A DNA stretch of 64,000 nucleotides from Candidatus Sysuiplasma jiujiangense. Lineage in GTDB: Archaea; Thermoplasmatota; Thermoplasmata; Sysuiplasmatales; Sysuiplasmataceae. The notes under the pieces were generated by a model. It had not been told where the DNA came from. It worked only from the letters and a program-made list of their open reading frames with translations, and did not search any database. A program made the translations under genes and the position numbers. The DNA lies in contig JAHEAD010000014.1 of NCBI GenBank assembly GCA_019721075.1, positions 404 to 64,403 of the forward strand, given 5' to 3'. Of the stretch, positions 7,041-21,236 are shown piece after piece. Positions within the stretch are counted from its first letter, which is position 1, and each line of letters begins with the position of its first letter.

Positions 7041-8579
7041 TTGGAATTTCACAGCATACTGTGGTTGCCTGAACATGCGAAAGCTTGGAAGGACGAGGTT
7101 GAAGCACCCGATTCGTTCCCGGATTTGAATCTGGATCGTGTCGTAAGTGATATCACCTCCAATCACAAATACAAAGAGTACGAATTGGAGAAATTTTATT
7201 ATCGCCTGCTGGCTGGAAAAGAGGCTGTAGTCTACCGCCAGCAGATATTTCAGGACCTCCAGGATCAGACCAAACTCGAGCTCATAAGGGATTTTGCCCA
7301 TGCAATGAAGAGAACGGAGAGCAGGATTCGTTCTGCCAGCCGGTATCCGTACGAATATCAGAAGGAAAGGGAGATATTGGACTCTGCAAAAATTTATTGC
7401 GATGCCGTGGCCGCCCTTTCAGCAGCAATAGTCCGCGCCGATTTTAAATCGGCTGGATTCCTGGCATTTGCAGATTTACTGACTGAATATGTAAACTCGG
7501 ATGAATTCAAAATGCTTGCAAAGGAAACCGAATCCCTGGAGAAGGATTTGCTAAACGTGGAGTATTCACTCATCATTAAGAGTGATGGGGTCATTATAAG
7601 GAGGTTTGCACCCGCACAGGATTACACAGCGGAATTAGCCGGGGTTTTTGAAAAATTCAAGAATGATAAATCCGAGATGGTCAAGGTTAGAACACCAAGT
7701 CACCATGATATAAATCATGTTGAGGCAATCCTCGTGGAATTGATAGCAAAATTCTATCCTGCCGTTTTCCAGAAACTGAAAGCATATTTTGAAAAATATT
7801 CTGATTATGTGAATCCTGCAATTCGGAGATTTTACAGGGAAATACAGTTCTATCTGTCCTACATCGACTACATCGTCCCGATGGAGAGCGCAAATCTGAA
7901 ATTCTGCATCCCTTCAATTTCTGAAGTAGACAGGAATATACTTATTCGGGATGGTTTCAATATTGCACTCGCTTCCGTTCTCATCCATAAGAGGGAGAAG
8001 GTGATATGCAATGATTTCCTTCTCGAAGGTGACGAGCGTATTGTTGTTGTGACAGGCCGCAATCAGGGGGGAAAGACTACCTTCGCAAGCTCCCTGGCCC
8101 AGATCGAATATTTGGGATGCCTGGGCCTGCCCGTACCCGCGAGTTATGCTCGGCTGTGTATCGTCGACGAAATTTTCACCCATTTCCAGAAAGAGGAGGC
8201 GGGCGAAAATCTGAGAAGCGGACTCGAAGATGATCTGCTCAGAATCCATGATGTCATTATGCATAGCACAGCTGAAAGCATGATAATCATAAACGAAATG
8301 CTCAGTTCGTGCACTTTGCAGGATGCCTCAGCCATTGGCAAGAAAATTCTGGGAACGATACAAAAAATAGGCTGCATTTGTGTTTACGTGACTTTCATTC
8401 ACGATCTCATCGAATTCGACAAAACAGTGTGTATGACAAATGAGGTTGACCCGCATAATCCTGATATTTCGACTTACAAACTCGTAAGAAAGCGACCGGA
8501 TACAGATTCTTATGCCATCCATATGGCCAGAAAATACGGACTGACTTACGATCAGTTGAGAGGGAGGTTGATGTCATGA
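7041..8579 (+). CDS. MutS-domain-V (ABC-type) ATPase, paralog A; no mismatch-binding or nuclease domain
   Basis: TTG start preceded by AGGAGG (7027-7032). N-terminal FHSILW...PDSFPDLNLDRV. C-terminal ATPase with Walker A TGRNQGGKTT, Walker B IIINE (Asn in place of Asp) and His-loop VTFIHDL. It ends directly after the ATPase domain. Confidence 0.8.
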   Translation: MEFHSILWLPEHAKAWKDEVEAPDSFPDLNLDRVVSDITSNHKYKEYELEKFYYRLLAGKEAVVYRQQIFQDLQDQTKLELIRDFAHAMKRTESRIRSASRYPYEYQKEREILDSAKIYCDAVAALSAAIVRADFKSAGFLAFADLLTEYVNSDEFKMLAKETESLEKDLLNVEYSLIIKSDGVIIRRFAPAQDYTAELAGVFEKFKNDKSEMVKVRTPSHHDINHVEAILVELIAKFYPAVFQKLKAYFEKYSDYVNPAIRRFYREIQFYLSYIDYIVPMESANLKFCIPSISEVDRNILIRDGFNIALASVLIHKREKVICNDFLLEGDERIVVVTGRNQGGKTTFASSLAQIEYLGCLGLPVPASYARLCIVDEIFTHFQKEEAGENLRSGLEDDLLRIHDVIMHSTAESMIIINEMLSSCTLQDASAIGKKILGTIQKIGCICVYVTFIHDLIEFDKTVCMTNEVDPHNPDISTYKLVRKRPDTDSYAIHMARKYGLTYDQLRGRLMS

Positions 8580-10060
8580 ATGTTTTCTTGCTTTTCAGGG
8601 ATCGTAATTTCGACTGGAAAAAGAACCTTCCTTACAATGAGCAGGAACTGCTGCACGATCTCGACCTGGATGTAATATTGAAGGTGATGTCTGCTGGCGA
8701 CTCCTATATCTATTCAGTCGCCAAAGCCGTTATTTTGTGCGGGGAAATGGATACTGCAACAATCAGATACCGTCAGGAAGTGCTAAATGACTGCACATCA
8801 GTGTATCCGCAGGTAAGAGATCTTTATCACATTGTTGTTAAGACGATTGAAACGGTGAAAAAAGACTTCTGGCTGACAGGCAACCGGCCTTTAATTCATC
8901 TCAGCACATCAACAAGCATAATGCGCATTCTGTTCAATGCACTAAGGGATCTGAGGCACATCGCAGATTTTTATTCCAAACAATTCAAATCCGAAGGTTT
9001 CAGGTCGCTTCTGGCGATGCTGAGAACGGAGTTCAGCGACGAATACATCAGGAATGTAGAAAACCATCTTGATGAACTCGAATTCAATAATGGTGTTCTG
9101 GCGACTGCCCGTCTGGGTATGGGGAACATCGGAGCGGATTATAGACTTCACAAGAGAAGAGAAGGAAGACGTGATGTGAAACGGATTCTTTCAGGGAAAA
9201 GGGACCAGTATGTCTTTACCATCGATCCGCGGGATTATAACAGTTCTCAATCTCTTTCAGCCCTCAGGGACAAGGTAATAGGCAATGCCACGTTGATGCT
9301 CTCGGAATCAGTCAGTCATGTGCTTGGTTTCTTCAACGACTTTCGTGGTGAGTTAGGTTTCTATATCGGATGTCTCAATCTGCATGATCAACTGAACCGG
9401 AATGGTTTACAGTTTTGCATGCCATTACCTTACGAACTTAATTCAAATATGTTCTCCTTCACAGGGCTGTATGATATCTCTCTCGCCCTGAGGCTTGGCG
9501 GTAGAATCGTAGCGAATGACCTCGATGCAAGAAACAGGAAACTGATAATAATCAGCGGTGCCAACAGAGGAGGCAAATCAACCTTCCTGAGAAGCATTGG
9601 CTTGGCTCAGTTGATGATGCAATGCGGAATGTTCGTGGCCGCCGGGTCCTATGAATGTGAAGTATCTGACGGCATTTTCACCCATTTCAAAAAGGAGGAA
9701 GATGCTGAAATGAGAATGGGGAAGCTTGACGAGGAATTGAAACGATTCAGTGATATCGTAGATCACCTGAGTCATGGATCGATGCTGCTGCTCAATGAAT
9801 CTTTTGCCTCAACAGACAACAGGAATGGTGCCGAAATCGCCTCTCAGGCCTTAGGTGGACTTATGGAATATGGAATAAAAATCCTGTTTGTGACACACAA
9901 TAATGAGGCGGCAGACAGATTTTACAGGAAGAATCCGGCAGATGCTGAATTCCTCAGGGCTGAAAGAAAGCATGACGGAAGCAGGACGTACAGAATAATA
10001 AGGGGAGAACCGCTGAAAACAAGCTTTGCGGAGGATCTTTATAACAGTATTTTCGGGTGA
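8576..10060 (+). CDS. MutS-domain-V (ABC-type) ATPase, paralog B
   Basis: The start overlaps the upstream stop (ATGA). Walker A SGANRGGKSTFLRSIG, GKLDEEL signature-like motif, Walker B LLLNESFAST, His-loop FVTHNNE. Confidence 0.8.
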   Translation: MNVFLLFRDRNFDWKKNLPYNEQELLHDLDLDVILKVMSAGDSYIYSVAKAVILCGEMDTATIRYRQEVLNDCTSVYPQVRDLYHIVVKTIETVKKDFWLTGNRPLIHLSTSTSIMRILFNALRDLRHIADFYSKQFKSEGFRSLLAMLRTEFSDEYIRNVENHLDELEFNNGVLATARLGMGNIGADYRLHKRREGRRDVKRILSGKRDQYVFTIDPRDYNSSQSLSALRDKVIGNATLMLSESVSHVLGFFNDFRGELGFYIGCLNLHDQLNRNGLQFCMPLPYELNSNMFSFTGLYDISLALRLGGRIVANDLDARNRKLIIISGANRGGKSTFLRSIGLAQLMMQCGMFVAAGSYECEVSDGIFTHFKKEEDAEMRMGKLDEELKRFSDIVDHLSHGSMLLLNESFASTDNRNGAEIASQALGGLMEYGIKILFVTHNNEAADRFYRKNPADAEFLRAERKHDGSRTYRIIRGEPLKTSFAEDLYNSIFG

Positions 10061-14832: not shown

Positions 14833-14849
14833 TTTATAAAATATCAATG
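14833..14849 (+). promoter_or_regulatory. TATA box/promoter of the vWA-PP2C operon (implies a leaderless mRNA)
   Basis: TTTATAAAATATCAATG ends 11 nt before the ATG at 14861. The 13-mer TAAAATATCAATG (14837-14849) recurs identically at 18461-18473. Confidence 0.5.
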
Positions 14850-14860
14850 TTCTTTGTGTC

Positions 14861-15700
14861 ATGTCGTACGAAGCTGAAATAAGCAGGTCCAATCCTACAC
14901 TGGTCCTTTTTATGATCGACCAGTCGAAATCGATGAGCTACAAGCTTCCGGGGGGAGAACGATCGAAGGCTATGGAAGCATCGGATGCCGTTAACAGGCA
15001 GATTGGCGAATTCGTGCTCCGCTGCACGAAGAGCGACGGGATAAGAGACTATTTTTATGTCGGAGTAATCGGTTACGGCTTCACCACTGGAAAGGCTGCA
15101 TTTATACTCAAGGGCGACAGGGTAAATCCCATCTCCAGGCTCGCCACAAGCACGCTGAGGGTGGAAAAGAGACAGATGAAGGTTTCAGACGGTGTGGGAG
15201 GCGTGAGCGAAGTGGACTACGACTTTGGAGTCTGGTTTGAAGCGACCGCTAACGGAGACACGCCGATGTGCAAGGCGCTGACTCTTGCAAAGGACACTGT
15301 AAAGGAGTGGATCGAGGCCCATCCGGGCTCGTATCCCCCGATACTGATAAATATAACAGACGGCCAGGCAACGGATGGAGATCCTGTAAAGGTCGCATCG
15401 GAGATAACTTCATTGAACACTTCCGACGGATCGCCGCTGTTGTGGAATTGTCACCTTTCGTCCAATCCGGCAGTACCAATCTCCTTCCCTTCATTCGAGT
15501 CTGACCTACCCGACGACAAATATGCAAAATCGCTCTTCACAATGTCAAGCGAGCTGCCTTCCCAGTACATAGGCTACGCGAGGGAAATGCAGATTGACCT
15601 GAAGGACAACGCACGGGCATATGTCTTCAATGCGCAGCTCGAACAACTCGTTCAGTTCATAGACATAGGAACAAGAGGGCCGCAGGGGCAGATGCAGTAG
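14861..15700 (+). CDS. von Willebrand factor A (vWA) domain protein with complete MIDAS, TerY-like
   Basis: MIDAS residues present: FMIDQSKSMS (DxSxS), NGDTPM (Thr) and INITDGQATDG (Asp). Confidence 0.85.
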   Translation: MSYEAEISRSNPTLVLFMIDQSKSMSYKLPGGERSKAMEASDAVNRQIGEFVLRCTKSDGIRDYFYVGVIGYGFTTGKAAFILKGDRVNPISRLATSTLRVEKRQMKVSDGVGGVSEVDYDFGVWFEATANGDTPMCKALTLAKDTVKEWIEAHPGSYPPILINITDGQATDGDPVKVASEITSLNTSDGSPLLWNCHLSSNPAVPISFPSFESDLPDDKYAKSLFTMSSELPSQYIGYAREMQIDLKDNARAYVFNAQLEQLVQFIDIGTRGPQGQMQ

Positions 15701-16435
15701 TTGCTCGCTGTACATGAGTTTCACAGACCCAAGACGGGAAACAGCGAAGGTGAATACGAGGATGCATTTGCCTGGGATGAGTCTGCGGGCGCATTTGCAG
15801 TTGCCGACGGTGCAACTGAATCGAGTTTTTCCGATCTGTGGGCGGGTGCGCTCGTCTCGACATTCATTGAAAACCCTCCTGATTTCAGCAGGAATGACAG
15901 GGATGTAATGAGGGACATACTCAGGCAGGCAAGGGACAGGTGGTACCGTGCAATCGACTGGGATTCACTTCCATGGTTTCAGAAGAACAAGGCGTATCTG
16001 GGCTCGTATTCCACCCTGCTCGGCCTTCAGATTGGCGCAGAAGGGAACAGCAGAAGATTCAGGTGCATTGTTGTCGGTGACTCGTGCATGTTCAATATCA
16101 GCGGCCAGAAACTGGAATCTTTCCCGTTTGCCGACAGCCAGGACATGAATAACACTCCAAGACTTATGTGGAGCGGACTTGGAACGCCTTCAGGACTGGA
16201 GAAGGATGTTGAAATTCCGGGGATAGAGGTAAAATACGGATGGCTCAGAAAAGGAGATACAGTCATGCTTGCTACGGATGCGCTCTCCAAATGGATCCTC
16301 CAGCACAAGGCAGAAAGGCCATGGGAAACACTCCTTTCCCATGCAGACAGCTTCGACTCCTTCATAGGGAATCTGATCGCCGAGGGAAAGATCAAGAATG
16401 ACGACGTTACGCTGATTTTCATTTCTATATCCTAG
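15701..16435 (+). CDS. PP2C/SpoIIE-like Ser/Thr protein phosphatase
   Basis: TTG start directly abuts the vWA TAG stop. Motifs EDAFAWD, AVADGATES, VVGDSCMF, LATDALSKW. Confidence 0.75.
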   Translation: MLAVHEFHRPKTGNSEGEYEDAFAWDESAGAFAVADGATESSFSDLWAGALVSTFIENPPDFSRNDRDVMRDILRQARDRWYRAIDWDSLPWFQKNKAYLGSYSTLLGLQIGAEGNSRRFRCIVVGDSCMFNISGQKLESFPFADSQDMNNTPRLMWSGLGTPSGLEKDVEIPGIEVKYGWLRKGDTVMLATDALSKWILQHKAERPWETLLSHADSFDSFIGNLIAEGKIKNDDVTLIFISIS

Positions 16436-18086
16436 CAAGCCGCTGGGGATCGCAACCTTCCCACAGCGGATCGCGTCTTACGGCATCGCAGAGCAGTTCC
16501 GTCAGTTGTCCCGCCCTGCCCCTGGTTTTCGTGAGTTCGTTTATCACCCTTGAACGTGAAGGGTCAAGGAAGTCGCTCTTCCGGAATATAAGGCAGTCCT
16601 GGTCTCCTTTGTTGTATTTGGTCCAGAGTGATGGATCCTCCGCCACGGCAATCAGCGAAAGGTATGTGACAAGTATAGAGAAATTGTCAAGGCGCTCCGA
16701 GTAGCTGTTCGAAGTCCTCATTGGATGCTGAAAATTGTCATGCCCAAGCTCCGGTGATTTGGTGCCAGAGAACTCCGGCACATACATGCCGTCGTAGTCG
16801 ACAAGAGTGAATGATCCCGAGGGGCCTATCACTATATTGTCCCCTGAAATATCCCCATGCGCTATTCCGGCACTCCTTATCCGCACCATTTCGTCGATAA
16901 ATGTGGATGCAAGACCATTCAGTGCCGCTCTGTTGCGCAGTTGCTCTGATATGAATGTATTCAGTGTTTTTCCCTCAACCCAGTCCATACGAAGGACAGG
17001 AAAATACATTGCAGGATTCCTGAAAGTCCTGATTGCCCCTGGAAGGTATTGAAAATTTACAAACGCATATCCCTTTGCATGTAACGGCTCCAGCGCTTTT
17101 GAAATTGCCAGGTACCGCTTGTTCAGGTCCTGTTTGCTGCGCGTAAAGCATTTCAAGGCGAGTGCAGATCCGTTGTTTTCCAGTTTGAAAATAATGCCGT
17201 AATTTCCAGAGGAATAGGCGACGTTTCCAGGCAACTTGATAAACGGGTTGGGGACAACCTTCGAATTTTTAAGCGCAGCATAGCCCGGAGAAATGCTGAA
17301 GCCTATATTCTGCATTGCGCGGGTGTAATCACTCTGGCCAGGCCACGGCACGTTCGCAGGGATAACGTCAGTAACCTTTTGTGCAGGAACTGAAGGAGTA
17401 TTCGTGCTTTCGGGAAACGCGCTCCTCTGCCTGCTGGCAGTTTTCGCAGCGCGTCCGGACGGAGATTTGCGCGGAGCTGGAGGATTCGGAGAATGTGCCG
17501 TTACGGCGGCAACAGACGGGCTGCCCGTCGAAATGGTTCCTGCAGGCTGTCCAGACGAGCCTGTATTTAAATCGAGAATCGAAACACTCCTTGTGGCCGG
17601 ACGAACGAAGAAGGAACAGGTAAAAATGACAAATCCCGAAATGGCCACATAATAAGGCGGAAGGAAAAATGCAATTACGACAAGCGGGAGAGTGGTTGAC
17701 AGAAAGGACATTCTTGACAGCCGTTCCCTGACGGCTAATATGACGACAGCATCCACCGACGCTATCAGTGCGACTATCATAATAAGGCTGTAAAGCGGAT
17801 TGAGCGGATTGCCATAGAAAAACGTGGCGGCGATGAGGAGTACGCCGTAGGCTGAATAGAGCGATCTGTAGGAGCCGAGATATCCCCTTGCAAATGAATA
17901 AGCGAGCAGTGCTGAACAGGCAGCAGCCACGATGACGGCGTGATAGAGCTCGAACAGCTTGAAGGCTGAACCGAAATGCAGGTATGAATAAGCGAACGTG
18001 AGGGTCTCTTCCAGCCACATAAGGGGAACAACGAGGAGGAACAGTATCACAAGCAAAGGGACAAGGTACCTCGCGGATGGTTTCAT
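16425..18086 (-). CDS. Polytopic membrane Ser/Thr protein kinase (5-6 N-terminal TM helices, S/P/A-rich linker, C-terminal Hanks-type kinase core)
   Basis: Catalytic-lysine context LALKCF, catalytic loop IAHGDISGDNIVI, LVDYDG in the DFG position. Several long hydrophobic segments in residues about 5-165. The 3' end overlaps the PP2C gene by 11 nt (convergent). Confidence 0.8.
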   Translation of the reverse strand: MKPSARYLVPLLVILFLLVVPLMWLEETLTFAYSYLHFGSAFKLFELYHAVIVAAACSALLAYSFARGYLGSYRSLYSAYGVLLIAATFFYGNPLNPLYSLIMIVALIASVDAVVILAVRERLSRMSFLSTTLPLVVIAFFLPPYYVAISGFVIFTCSFFVRPATRSVSILDLNTGSSGQPAGTISTGSPSVAAVTAHSPNPPAPRKSPSGRAAKTASRQRSAFPESTNTPSVPAQKVTDVIPANVPWPGQSDYTRAMQNIGFSISPGYAALKNSKVVPNPFIKLPGNVAYSSGNYGIIFKLENNGSALALKCFTRSKQDLNKRYLAISKALEPLHAKGYAFVNFQYLPGAIRTFRNPAMYFPVLRMDWVEGKTLNTFISEQLRNRAALNGLASTFIDEMVRIRSAGIAHGDISGDNIVIGPSGSFTLVDYDGMYVPEFSGTKSPELGHDNFQHPMRTSNSYSERLDNFSILVTYLSLIAVAEDPSLWTKYNKGDQDCLIFRKSDFLDPSRSRVINELTKTRGRAGQLTELLCDAVRRDPLWEGCDPQRLARI

Positions 18087-18121: not shown

Positions 18122-18459
18122 ATTAGCACACAGTCGCTTGAGGCGGAGATTCTCGACGCACAAATTCAGATGCATTCATGTCATCTGTGCCAGGGCAGAT
18201 TATACGGCAGCTGAAATTGTGTTAAAACGCTGCACCTGCCAGAAATGGCTGTGAAGTTGCGGATCAGCACGTGAATTAGTGATACCCACAGCAGCGCAGG
18301 TGTCGGTCACGGCATTCGCATTACATGTTGACAGCTCCTGACTTGTGTAATCCGGCACATATGGTCTCAATTGCGCCTGTCCAGGCAACGCGCAGCCACC
18401 ATACTGTGAAAGCATCTGCGGCACTCCATGTTATCCTGTTGAATAATCAGCATGATGCG

Positions 18460-18473
18460 TTAAAATATCAATG
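18460..18473 (+). promoter_or_regulatory. TATA box/promoter of the KaiC-like gene
   Basis: TTAAAATATCAATG ends 17 nt before the ATG at 18491 and contains the same 13-mer as the vWA promoter. Confidence 0.5.
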
Positions 18474-18490: not shown

Positions 18491-20356
18491 ATGGAGAAGA
18501 AGGAAATAGCGGCAAAAGCACTTGAATTTGCTGCAAGGCAGGAAAATATTGAGAAGGACACCGTCGCCGCTGGTCAGATCAGGGATTTTCTTGCCAGATA
18601 CCCTTTCAAAGAGAAGCCGGAGCTTCTGAGAACGATAGCTCCAAACGATCTTTATGACAGGAATGCCGACGATCGCTTTTTTGACTGGCTGACAGAAAGA
18701 ACCGGCATGGTAGGCCAGCTGTCCGGGTATGAAAAGGTCATCTTTTCTGAAGCGGTAAGACGATTTGACTTCCTGAAAGTGCTGCTCACGGTTCTTGTTT
18801 CCGACAAGAGGAGTGTTTCATTCAAGATTGATCAGAACTGGGGGGTCATACCGGGCTTTGGAGGCGACAAGCTGATCGCCAAGAAGCTTATCGCCATTTA
18901 CTACCCGGAAGGGGTGATCCCGGTTTTCAGGACTGAAGACCTGGAACAATTCTCGGTCCAGCTGGGTATTCCGTTTAAGAACAGTGCGTTACAGCGGTAC
19001 AGGAAGGATTATTCACTCCTCTCGGTAGGACAGAGATTTGAACTGCTGAATTCGGGATTGATGGAGTTCAAGGCCGCATATCTCGAAAAAATAACAAACA
19101 CACTGCTCGCATCATTCCTATATCATGCATTCCTGCCTTCCTTACCGCAGAAGTCCGCACCTCCGCCTGCAGCAGAGAAGCAGCTGCAGCCGAAAGCTGA
19201 AGAGGAACTTGCAAGGGCAACACAGGACTTCGAGGCAAGACTCAGGGAGGCTGACAGAACAATTAGGGAACTGAGGAACGAGGTGAAGAGCAGGGGAGAG
19301 AGCATAAGCAGACTTGAGGATAAACTGCGCACTCTGGGTGAGGAAATAAGGAAGAAGGAGTCCGACATTCAGCGGAGGGAAGAAATGATGCAGGAGGAGC
19401 TCCGGCAGTCGGATGCCAGGAATAAGCTTTTTAGCGAAGCCGAAAAGTCTGAACTGAGGAAAACGATAACAGAACTTACCAGACAGATAGAGGAGAAGGA
19501 AGAAAGACTCAAATCGCTGGAAAGGAAGCTTTCCGAACAGGAGGGACAGGTGAGGATAGGAGAGAGTGATTTCATCGATGGCGAAATCGGGACTTTTGAG
19601 AGTCCTTCCGCTCCGGATGAAAACCATCCAAAGGCAAAGACCGGCATTCAGAGGCTTGACGATCTCCTGATGGGAGGCATACCGGTTGGCTCACAGGTGA
19701 TAGTATATGGGCCATCATTCATCGGAAAGGAGATAGCAATCGACGCTTTTGCAGCCCAGGGTCTGAGCGAAGGCGTTCCACTTGTCTGGATCACCACAGA
19801 CAGGACAATAGACGAAATAAGGGAGGAAATGTCCCTCCTTCTGAACAACTACACGGAGTATGAGAAGAAAGGCCTTGTTTTCTATATCGACGCCTATTCA
19901 AGGATCGTAGGGGATACCTCCGTTTCTGAAAATACTGCATACCTGGATGACACCAGCAACGTAGAAAGCATAGGCGACATGACAAACAGCCACATTGCAT
20001 CGATCGACGCACTTGCAAAGGACAAAGGATACAGGCTGGTATTCAGATCCGTGTCGAGTCTGAGCGCGAACCACGACATAAAGAATATTTTCGCATTGCT
20101 GAGGCAGTTTGTTGCGCACAGGAGGAAGGACAGGTGTATCGGCGTCTACAGCATAGAAAGGGGCATCATGTCGGAACAGGATTTGCAGATAATAAGCAGC
20201 ATCATGGATGGAGTCATTGAATTTTCCACCGACACGAAGAACAATTTTCTCGCCGTCCGCGGGATATGCGATACACAGACAAGGGACAAAATCCAGTATA
20301 CTGCCGGAAAGAACACACTCAACATCGGTTCATTCTTCCTGGGCCGAATTAAATAG
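18491..20356 (+). CDS. Three-part protein: unassigned N-terminal helical domain, long coiled coil, C-terminal KaiC/RecA-superfamily (COG0467-like) domain with degenerate P-loop
   Basis: The E/K/R-rich heptad-like region spans about residues 225-355 (EELARATQDFEARLREADRTIRELRNEVK...). The C-terminal TGIQRLDDLLMGGIPVGSQVIVYGPSFIGKE resembles KaiC/RadA-like ATPases, but the Walker A ends in GKE rather than GK[ST]. Confidence 0.7.
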   Translation: MEKKEIAAKALEFAARQENIEKDTVAAGQIRDFLARYPFKEKPELLRTIAPNDLYDRNADDRFFDWLTERTGMVGQLSGYEKVIFSEAVRRFDFLKVLLTVLVSDKRSVSFKIDQNWGVIPGFGGDKLIAKKLIAIYYPEGVIPVFRTEDLEQFSVQLGIPFKNSALQRYRKDYSLLSVGQRFELLNSGLMEFKAAYLEKITNTLLASFLYHAFLPSLPQKSAPPPAAEKQLQPKAEEELARATQDFEARLREADRTIRELRNEVKSRGESISRLEDKLRTLGEEIRKKESDIQRREEMMQEELRQSDARNKLFSEAEKSELRKTITELTRQIEEKEERLKSLERKLSEQEGQVRIGESDFIDGEIGTFESPSAPDENHPKAKTGIQRLDDLLMGGIPVGSQVIVYGPSFIGKEIAIDAFAAQGLSEGVPLVWITTDRTIDEIREEMSLLLNNYTEYEKKGLVFYIDAYSRIVGDTSVSENTAYLDDTSNVESIGDMTNSHIASIDALAKDKGYRLVFRSVSSLSANHDIKNIFALLRQFVAHRRKDRCIGVYSIERGIMSEQDLQIISSIMDGVIEFSTDTKNNFLAVRGICDTQTRDKIQYTAGKNTLNIGSFFLGRIK

Positions 20357-20382: not shown

Positions 20383-21236
20383 TGCTGCCGGTGTCATCCA
20401 TCAACAGTCTCACAGGGAAAAAAGCGAACATTTCCACAGCCTCCACAGAGGCAGGGAGATATTCGTACTTCCAGGTGATTGGATGTTACTGGTGCGGGAG
20501 CGTTCGAGGATTCCTGTTTCAGCGCTGTTGCAACATGAAGCGCAGGTATCATGATTCCACCCCAATACACCGATGATGAGACCATGCCAAAGAAGGAGAT
20601 GGTCGCGTTGGTCTCGAGAATCGCTGAAAATTTTTCCGTCCAGCAGAGTGCCGATATGGTTGGCGGTTTCGGTAAAGCATAGCGCCGCCTTAAACAAAAA
20701 GTCGGATCAATTTCAGAGGCTGGCGAAGTTGGACTGAACCGAAGGGTTTTGTGCAAGGAAAAGGCAGTCTGAATCAGACTGAGACGCAGATTGACCGGTT
20801 ACGTGCCGTCAGGTAAGAAGTGATCTCCATGGGAGCGTCTTTGGTCATCAATGTATGCAACGACGCGCTAAGGTATGCTGAAGACAATGAGAATTAGAAA
20901 ATCGGAGAAGCAGTGAAGAGGGCAAACGCACGCAGTGATACCCGAGCGGATTTTGAATATCCGCTGGAACTCACCGATGCAATGACGATTTTGATTTTTG
21001 TCAGAAAACTGAATCTCACGATAAACCTCATGGTGAGTAAGGGCTTGCCGGCGGCGGACCTCAGGCACCTGTGTATTGCGAGAGTCAGCTTCGGGTCCGG
21101 CATTTCCAATGCCGCCATGCGGCTGCTCCGCAGCTCTTCATCAGAGATGCTCGAAAAGGGAATCTACCACCTGGCGACCGATGATGCCATAACCTTCGAC
21201 GAACCGAATTGTCTTGCCGAAATGAAAGGAGTCTGA
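20383..21236 (+). pseudogene. Decayed PEP mutase / isocitrate lyase superfamily gene (methylisocitrate-lyase-like)
   Basis: Recognisable pieces lie in shifting frames and are interrupted by stops: FHSLHRGREIFVLPGDW; DVTGAGAFEDSCFSAVAT*SAGIMIPPQYTDDETMPKKEMVALVSRIAENFSVQQSADMVGGFGKA*; EAGEVGLN; and the C-terminal PLELTD...GLPAADLRHLCIARVSFGSGISNAAMRLL (ORF 20913-21236). Confidence 0.6.

Follow-up and report, generated by a model that had tools for sequence, protein, structure and literature searches.

Why would an archaeon maintain a KaiC-like protein with a glutamate where a magnesium ion should be coordinated, and why would it encode this protein beside a kinase, a phosphatase, and a von Willebrand factor A (vWA) protein? 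This question is raised by a gene at positions 18491-20356 (+) of a 64,000-nucleotide stretch from Candidatus Sysuiplasma jiujiangense, a member of the Thermoplasmata (contig JAHEAD010000014.1 of assembly GCA_019721075.1, positions 404 to 64,403). We will call the whole stretch the window, and we will call the gene and its 621-amino-acid protein the target. We find that the altered nucleotide site is conserved in a family of proteins, that the target joins this family's domain to a coiled coil and to a head domain whose relatives are in restriction or defense proteins, and that it co-occurs with the three genes of a TerY-P system. With middling confidence, we explain the target as a scaffold that oligomerizes and hydrolyzes little or no nucleotide, and that would serve an archaeal TerY-P switch as its sensor or its output.

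The open reading frame (ORF) of the target has no competing frame, and the opposite strand is closed. Its orthologs are 52-99% identical to it along the whole protein. A sequence-only reading of the window had divided the protein into three parts, and the ORF, Pfam, and a full-length AlphaFold2 model agree with this division. (The model was built from 66 input sequences and has a mean predicted local distance difference test score, or pLDDT, of 76.) The first part is an all-helical domain, which we will call the N-domain (residues 1-217, or about 1-215 in the model; 18491-19141, +). After a linker that is disordered in the model (residues 218-235), two long helices (residues 236-312 and 316-351) form a stalk (residues 236-351; 19196-19543, +). 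As expected for an E/K/R-rich coiled coil, these three residues make up 47% of the stalk, and the hydrophobic occupancy of the heptad a/d positions is 0.66, versus 0.46 +/- 0.04 in shuffled sequences. The stalk has weak matches solely to the coiled coils of SMC, LmuB, and JetC. We dismissed the identification of the target as LmuB or JetC, which are models in PADLOC, because the matches span the coiled coil only.

A second disordered linker (residues 351-376) leads to a KaiC/ArlH-type domain with a RecA fold (residues 380-615; 19628-20335, +). That this domain is KaiC- or RecA-like had been proposed from the sequence, and both profiles and fold bear it out. Pfam's KaiC family (PF06745, in superfamily COG0467) matches residues 383-587 with 66.3 bits, as compared to a cutoff of 26.6 bits (E = 3.4e-18), and a profile search of PDB sequences has its best matches among the single-domain KaiC-like proteins of archaea (E = 4.6e-20). 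In the model, residues 380-615 form a RecA-type alpha/beta fold with a pLDDT of about 88. The domain's structural matches from Foldseek include PH0284 (TM score of 0.80-0.85), KaiC (E = 2.4e-13), and FlaH (4yds; TM score of 0.77). In NCBIfam, the target's similarities to KaiC, ArlH, and FlaH were all below threshold.

To describe the nucleotide site, we used an alignment of 75 relatives, together with a canonical KaiC-like protein from the same genome, and we anchored the motifs by profile alignment to solved KaiC-like structures. The unusual Walker A motif, GPSFIGKE (G407-E414; 19709-19732, +), was read correctly from the sequence, and it aligns with GGPGTGKT of PH0284. Across the relatives, GPxFxGKE is nearly invariant: G407, P408, G412, and K413 are present in all 75, F410 in 69, and E414 in 74. 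So, nearly all of these proteins depart from the canonical GxxxxGK[S/T] in the same way, with Glu at the Ser/Thr position in 74/75.

The sequence-only reading described a degenerate P-loop, but the changes are not confined to the P-loop. Where KaiC-like ATPases have a catalytic Glu-Glu pair, the target has D437-R438 (19799-19804, +), which aligns with the "LEE" of both PH0284 and the canonical KaiC-like protein from the same genome. The first residue of this pair is D in 43 relatives and E in 32, and the second is K in 68, H in 4, and R in 3. The equivalent of Walker B is RLVFRSVS (20033-20056, +), where, according to the profile alignment on PH0284, R519 (20045-20047) replaces the Asp. This position is Arg in 68 relatives, Lys in 4, and another residue in 3. 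Thus, with R519 and D437-R438, the target lacks the usual hhhhD and catalytic Glu. In the profile alignment of the family with PH0284, the corresponding segments are GPpfiGKEv and GGPGTGKTI, witDKt and vaLEEh, and yyRlafRSisTL and kRVVVDSVTTL. In 72/75 relatives, the acid in Walker A is accompanied by a base in Walker B.

Because this charge swap is kept in 72/75 relatives, the odd P-loop is, judging from the alignments, a conserved remodeling and not decay. In RecA-fold ATPases, the Mg ion is held jointly by the Thr/Ser of Walker A and the Asp of Walker B, so Glu and Arg at these positions would plausibly be joined by a salt bridge (E414-R519) that takes the place of the Mg. Also, the site still has the Lys of the P-loop and an acid among its catalytic residues, which makes it likely that the domain binds a ligand, as we predict. 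The conserved charge swap fits the earlier proposal of nucleotide binding without normal hydrolysis, or of a scaffold. In a literature search, we did not find this specific combination (GKE, hhhhR, and D/E-K) described. A charge-swapped KaiC site that is conserved in most of the sampled genomes of a class suggests a natural experiment in the evolution of RecA-fold pseudo-enzymes.

The remodeled site also helps to define a family. We considered proteins to form the GKE family if their KaiC-like domain is preceded by a coiled coil and they have GPxFxGKE, a basic residue in Walker B, and a C-terminal IGSFxLxxI[KR]; according to the alignments and the tree, the target has all of these features. 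Using word-indexed and pattern-based searches, we found relatives only in the Thermoplasmata, and a scan of species-representative genomes identified 294 loci. The C-terminal domain is present in 123 of the 151 genomes that we sampled from this class, representing 55 of 66 genera, and often in two copies. The head domains of the relatives vary and include Zn ribbons, Zn ribbons with a helix-hairpin-helix, and long coiled coils.

The parent family has a characteristic neighborhood. In 53/61 loci, its gene adjoins a gene that we call "cl1," which encodes a 147-amino-acid protein of no recognized family. The "cl1" gene is convergent to the class-wide KaiC-like gene, and its protein has no match in Pfam or PHROGs (examples are at C23:93741-94223 (+) in the target's own genome and at L048:11120-11563 (-)). 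It is probably an obligate partner of the parent-family protein. Also, pilus genes are found no more than 10 kb away in 31/45 loci; these encode a pilin-like DUF7289 protein, a T2SSE ATPase, and two T2SSF platform proteins. In the target's genome, a paralog with a Zn ribbon and its "cl1" neighbor (C23:93741-95890) are about 10 kb from a pilus locus (C23:77632-84038), which encodes a DUF7289 pilin-like protein, T2SSE, two half-platform T2SSF proteins, and a second T2SSE. The genes for its two ATPases are at C23:78540-80327 and C23:82314-84038. By gene content, this locus matches the CdiP machinery of Cuniculiplasma, with its two ATPases and split platform; the description of CdiP does not mention a KaiC-like component (PMC12448462). 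A GKE-family gene beside the newly described pilus genes of the Thermoplasmatales type suggests that these pili have an accessory component that has yet to be studied. These neighborhoods give indirect support to the earlier analogy to ArlH, by way of the parent family's location beside genes for a type IV pilus ATPase and platform.

In a maximum-likelihood tree, the seven proteins with the N-domain form one clade (support of 100/100) with a long stem, and this clade is nested among the Zn-ribbon paralogs of the Sysuiplasmataceae. The target and the Zn-ribbon paralog are both present in the same genomes. From this placement, the target is a duplicate, specific to the Sysuiplasmataceae, of a class-wide pilus-linked gene, and the duplicate has a new head domain.

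Several other families in the class have a second and more divergent GKE-type copy of about 900-1000 amino acids (for example, at G150:C1:1571140-1571868 and G046:C1:1961588-1962319), so the GKE family has been duplicated repeatedly. The target's genome also contains three consecutive KaiC-like genes (C54:84486-87216), which encode proteins of 260, 240, and 451 amino acids. The last of these carries a Zn ribbon at its N-terminus, and P-loops of the form GxxGTMK[T/S] are found in two of the three. They seem to form a signaling cluster of the KaiC type in their own right. Just downstream of the target is an ORF of 120 amino acids (20394-20756, -), which we considered as a "cl1" partner and rejected: no "cl1" homolog is near any ortholog of the target.

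Where did the new head come from? The N-domain was reported from the sequence as helical and unassigned, and indeed, it does not match any family in Pfam, NCBIfam, or PHROGs. A profile search against PDB sequences gave no matches at E <= 10, and a fold search with its model, against the PDB and viral structures, gave a best E above 1. (When modeled alone, the N-domain has a pLDDT of 65.6, which is moderate confidence.) But it is not an orphan. We built a profile from the seven orthologs, which share the invariant motifs KIDQNWGxIPGFGG and FELLN, and compared it to 1.84 billion representative proteins. This full-length profile identified 145 representative relatives, 111 of these at E <= 1e-10. 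Some of the relatives are stand-alone proteins of about 215-270 amino acids, others are proteins of about 330-400 amino acids, and in still others the domain is embedded within a large protein. The fusion partners in 51 long homologs are AAA_5/McrB-like domains (11), EVE (6), the NOV_C nuclease (6), STAND/AAA_22 (4), Schlafen AlbA_2 (2), and NucS_C (1). PADLOC's PD-T4-1 model partially matches the C-terminal half of the domain (residues 128-221), with E = 2.9e-11 for the relative P0030 and E = 0.007 for the protein in the window.

All five of the genomic contexts that we inspected are restriction or defense islands with McrBC, BREX, or Type I restriction-modification systems. In one of these, the N-domain gene is beside the BREX genes pglZ and brxL. 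In another, the N-domain is encoded on its own, immediately before split McrB and McrC genes. A third context has a protein with EVE, the N-domain, and AAA_5, followed by a McrC-like gene, beside a DNA methylase; a fourth is beside a Type I restriction-modification system and a BrxC/BrxD-like ATPase. The fifth case (P0040) is weaker: the protein itself is McrB-like and its neighbors are mostly unannotated. Loci with the N-domain include L085:8001-10628, L101:7001-9295, L102:7001-9823, and L103:7001-8029. Precomputed annotations assign PF28530 (DUF8426) to two such proteins, but this probably describes a neighboring region and not the N-domain.

Given these fusions and islands, the N-domain sits in the same place as the variable sensor heads of McrB-type proteins. 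By this analogy, we predict that its ligand is probably nucleic acid or some other molecule, and nucleic-acid binding in particular is plausible. Its homologs show that the head domain of the target is of defense-type ancestry. More broadly, the N-domain is a widespread and uncatalogued module of McrBC-type and other defense proteins, and it merits a family definition, such as a Pfam entry. The sequence-only reading had missed both the association of the N-domain with restriction and defense and the recent paralogy of the target. Together, these shift the likely biology towards a conflict or sensing module that is linked to TerY-P.

The evidence for that link begins with the genes upstream. 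A vWA protein of the TerY type (14861-15700, +) matches PADLOC's TerY model over its full length (E = 3.2e-91), and it is followed by a PP2C phosphatase (15701-16435, +; Pfam PP2C_2, E = 4.3e-8). On the other strand is a membrane-embedded Ser/Thr kinase (16425-18086, -), whose residues 283-527 match PADLOC's STK_OB model (E = 3.2e-60) and whose residues 1-157 contain several hydrophobic stretches. As was noticed from the sequence, the membrane kinase is divergent from the target; the spacer between them is 404 bp. Thus, the core of a TerY-P system (TerY, PP2C, and an STK_OB kinase) is present and the genes are adjacent. The target does not match any of PADLOC's models for TerY-P, so we consider it to be an accessory protein instead of a member of TerY-P.

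Five genomes share one gene order: vWA (+), PP2C (+), kinase (-), target (+). This four-gene block is the only conserved synteny among the five, as the other flanking regions are unrelated except for two minor shared genes. TerY from the triad is 80-90% identical within the family, and PP2C keeps its position in the orthologous loci. Linkage to the kinase, phosphatase, and vWA genes, which had been proposed from the window, thus holds across genomes: of ten Sysuiplasmataceae genomes, eight have the N-domain gene together with TerY and the remaining two have neither, and the target adjoins the triad in 5/8. One of the joint absences is in G004, which retains the Zn-ribbon paralog; its genus-mates have both the target and TerY, which indicates a joint loss.

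Within the wider class, we found TerY only in the Sysuiplasmataceae and in one family of the Thermoplasmatales type (f18). The TerY-P loci of f18 have no KaiC-like or coiled-coil neighbor; their neighbors vary, and several are ordinary metabolic genes. (In one genus of this family, represented by L094 and L099, an ORF of 529 amino acids is directly upstream of TerY, and the L094 copy, at L094:7044-8630, matches B12-binding and radical-SAM domains.) Whereas f18 has TerY-P and no target, every target in our sample is accompanied by TerY-P, so the dependence looks one-way: the target seems to accompany TerY-P, and TerY-P can stand alone. TerY-P is catalogued as an anti-phage and signaling triad without a known mechanism, so a conserved, co-inherited partner is a concrete candidate for its substrate, sensor, or effector. 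As for which of these it might be, that the target is a substrate of the kinase would be pure inference.

Besides the TerY-P genes, the target's neighbors are a fragment of a phosphoenolpyruvate (PEP) mutase gene and an acyl-CoA dehydrogenase. The fragment is an ORF of 107 amino acids (20913-21236 in the window) whose match to the PEP-mutase family is limited to the C-terminal end (positions 161-239/240), which is consistent with a decayed gene 3' of the target. At 7041-10060, several kb before the TerY-P block, is an adjacent pair of genes for proteins with only domain V of MutS (PF00488, E ~1e-17 each). These may be another conflict-type pair of ATPases.

Sharing of a promoter motif had also been put forward as a link between the target and the vWA operon. 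The motif is a 13-mer, TAAAATATCAATG, which is found at 14837-14849 and at 18461-18473, with no third copy in the 2.29-Mb genome. The promoter region of the target (18440-18473, +) includes an upstream element, TGAATAATCAG (18440-18450), and a TATA-like sequence, TTAAAATAT, which lies inside the 13-mer. When compared to the promoters of orthologs, the 13-mer is conserved in its TATA portion but not in its CAATG tail. So, although both promoters do contain the 13-mer, what they share is mostly a TATA box, and we did not count it as evidence of co-regulation. What is conserved upstream of 6/7 orthologs of the target is TGAATAATCAGnnTGA and GTTAAAATAT; L006 is degenerate at both. The TGAATAATCAGnnTGA element, present in the window and in the promoters of L001-L005, is just upstream of the TATA box, including where the target is not linked to TerY-P, and we propose it as a candidate transcription-factor site. 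Some vWA promoters have a looser (A/T)TCAG with comparable spacing. Also, the spacing between the TATA box and the ATG suggests that the transcripts of both the target and the vWA gene may be leaderless or nearly so.

If the target is an oligomeric scaffold for TerY-P, then it might work as follows. It would be a cytoplasmic protein with a helical head, a stalk of about 115 residues, and a domain with the KaiC/ArlH fold. The KaiC-like domain, along with the coiled coil, would oligomerize, as KaiC and ArlH do. It would bind a nucleotide or phosphate but hydrolyze little or none, because E414 and R519 would fill the site of the Mg. The target would thereby be a sensor or a phospho-controlled output of TerY-P that is specific to this lineage. 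After the duplicate joined the vWA, PP2C, and kinase genes in a four-gene block, the membrane kinase and PP2C would have come to set the phosphorylation and assembly state of the target, and the MIDAS (metal ion-dependent adhesion site) domain of TerY would read that state.

Several points weigh against this explanation. The first catalytic acid and the P-loop Lys are kept, so some residual catalysis is conceivable. The target and the triad are on different contigs in 3/8 genomes, and in at least one of these (G005, locus L002), with 10 kb of flanking sequence, they are truly unlinked. The ten related genomes are a small sample and are not phylogenetically independent. A DNA-binding role for the head rests on guilt by association, with a moderate model and no fold match. 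Finally, phosphorylation, the interaction with TerY or the kinase, nucleotide binding, and oligomerization are all steps that we infer. There are also rival explanations, not all of which are mutually exclusive with each other or with a scaffold for TerY-P.

One rival, which we consider unlikely but credible, is that the target mainly regulates a type IV pilus of the CdiP kind, much as ArlH or CirA act on motility structures. Its ring would dock in trans on the hexamer of the pilus ATPase, TerY-P would have an Arn-like role, and neither would be involved in defense. The neighborhood of the parent family and the CdiP-like locus with two ATPases in the target's own genome are as this rival would predict. 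The target also has weak similarity to ArlH and FlaH in NCBIfam (E ~4e-7), as well as its structural similarity to FlaH. There are precedents in other archaea: the archaellum of Sulfolobus is controlled by ArnB (a vWA protein), kinases, and phosphatases, and type IV pili have KaiC-like proteins associated with them (PMC4858521), and the KaiC-like protein CirA regulates motility (PMC10983859). However, the target has lost the features that tie its relatives to the pilus, as it has neither the "cl1" neighbor (0/5 loci) nor proximity to pilus genes (0/4 loci). It is also evolving faster than the pilus-linked copy that is kept in the same genomes, and its new head comes from restriction and defense proteins, not from pilus systems. 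Furthermore, the f18 genomes, which are of the Thermoplasmatales type, have TerY-P without the target.

It is quite unlikely, in our view, that the KaiC-like domain is instead an active ATPase or autokinase, in which E414 binds Mg directly in place of both the Walker A Thr and the Walker B Asp and the protein serves as a phospho-timer or a motor. This would account for the invariant Gly and Lys of the P-loop and for the first catalytic position, which is always acidic. It would also account for the invariance of E556, D573, Q596, and R598, and conservation across the whole site suggests that a ligand is still bound. Also, position 570 is Ser or Thr in 72/75 relatives; this is presumably where the phospho-sites of KaiC (S431/T432) lie. 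But the base in Walker B (72/75) and the base beside the catalytic acid (75/75) would both repel Mg2+. We know of no characterized RecA-fold ATPase with GKE plus hhhhR, and a search of the literature for one found none.

It is highly unlikely that adjacency to TerY-P is meaningless and that the target acts alone, for instance as a structural or repair factor associated with DNA: its separation from the triad in 3/8 genomes, its divergent and separate transcription unit, a shared 13-mer that is mostly TATA box, and its RecA fold and relatives with Zn-ribbon or helix-hairpin-helix heads (HHH_5 matches P0024 with E = 6.7e-16) would all be expected, but the four-gene block is the only synteny that survives across five otherwise different contexts, and co-presence and co-absence are perfect in ten genomes, including the joint loss in G004.

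A reading that joins the role with TerY-P to the role at the pilus, and which seems distinctly improbable as stated, is that the four-gene block is an antiviral module. Foreign nucleic acid or a viral cue would be detected by the McrB-type head, and the target would then change its assembly state under the control of the kinase and phosphatase. The KaiC-like ring, as inherited from the pilus-linked paralog, would shut down a pilus that archaeal viruses use as a receptor, by acting on its ATPase. If this were true, then the target would be the first defined effector of TerY-P, and it would link defense to the control of pili.

How does the target compare to known systems? The TerY-P triad was reportedly recognized by Anantharaman, Iyer and Aravind in 2012, and it is said to be among the anti-phage systems of Gao et al. 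2020. The genes beside the target encode a bona fide TerY vWA protein, a PP2C phosphatase, and an STK_OB-type kinase, which here is embedded in the membrane. TerY-P triads couple to varied partner modules, such as CoCoNuT systems (PMC11090510); in the literature that we examined, we did not find a KaiC-like partner. Archaeal KaiC-like and vWA proteins have been predicted to be regulators, including of type IV pili (PMC4858521).

The head of the target can be compared to the N-terminal heads of the McrB family, such as EVE and MrcB_N. In those systems, the N-domain lies between EVE and AAA_5, or is encoded by its own gene before split McrB and McrC. Whereas the heads of the McrB family are fused to a GTPase or nuclease, the target's N-domain is fused to a KaiC-like domain, and it has neither a Pfam model nor a fold neighbor.

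ArlH/FlaH (4yds and 4wia) shares with the target a single domain with the RecA/KaiC fold, and arlH is beside arlI and arlJ, just as the parent family is beside ATPase and platform genes for a type IV filament. But the target scores far below the equivalog models for ArlH/FlaH (29.9 bits versus 215 for NF052589 and 29.6 versus 194 for PRK06067), and it is neither beside arlI/arlJ nor near pilus genes. ArlH also lacks the N-terminal head and the coiled coil. Its Walker A is canonical and binds Mg-ATP (both ATP and a Mg ion are named in the title of 4yds), while the target has GKE and an Arg in Walker B. The circadian KaiC has tandem CI and CII domains and has KaiB and KaiA as partners, whereas the target has a single domain and scores 18.5 bits against TIGR02655, as compared to a cutoff of 546. 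The target's best matches, by both structure and profile, are the single-domain KaiC-like proteins of archaea, PH0284 (2dr3) and PH0186 (2zts).

Two other comparisons are to modified forms of KaiC. Inactivated KaiC domains ("iKaiC") are reported from archaeal signaling proteins (Makarova et al. 2017, as cited in PMC5847659). They reportedly keep their fold while the catalytic motifs have degenerated, and in this respect they resemble the target. KaiC-RS from Rhodobacter sphaeroides (8dba and 8fwi, which are titled as dodecameric KaiC; PMC10076222) resembles the target in that the KaiC fold is combined with a coiled coil, which organizes a higher-order assembly. However, KaiC-RS is a catalytically active clock protein with two domains, while the target has a single remodeled domain, with the coiled coil on its N-terminal side. 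The coiled coil of KaiC-RS is reportedly a C-terminal extension.

In the literature that we examined, we did not find a description of a KaiC-like domain that is fused to a coiled coil and a McrB-type head. As kinds of system, inactivated KaiC domains in archaea, KaiC-like and vWA regulators of pili, and TerY-P with diverse partners were already known. The architecture of the target, the class-wide site with GKE and Arg, and a KaiC-like partner of TerY-P appear, relative to that literature, to be new.

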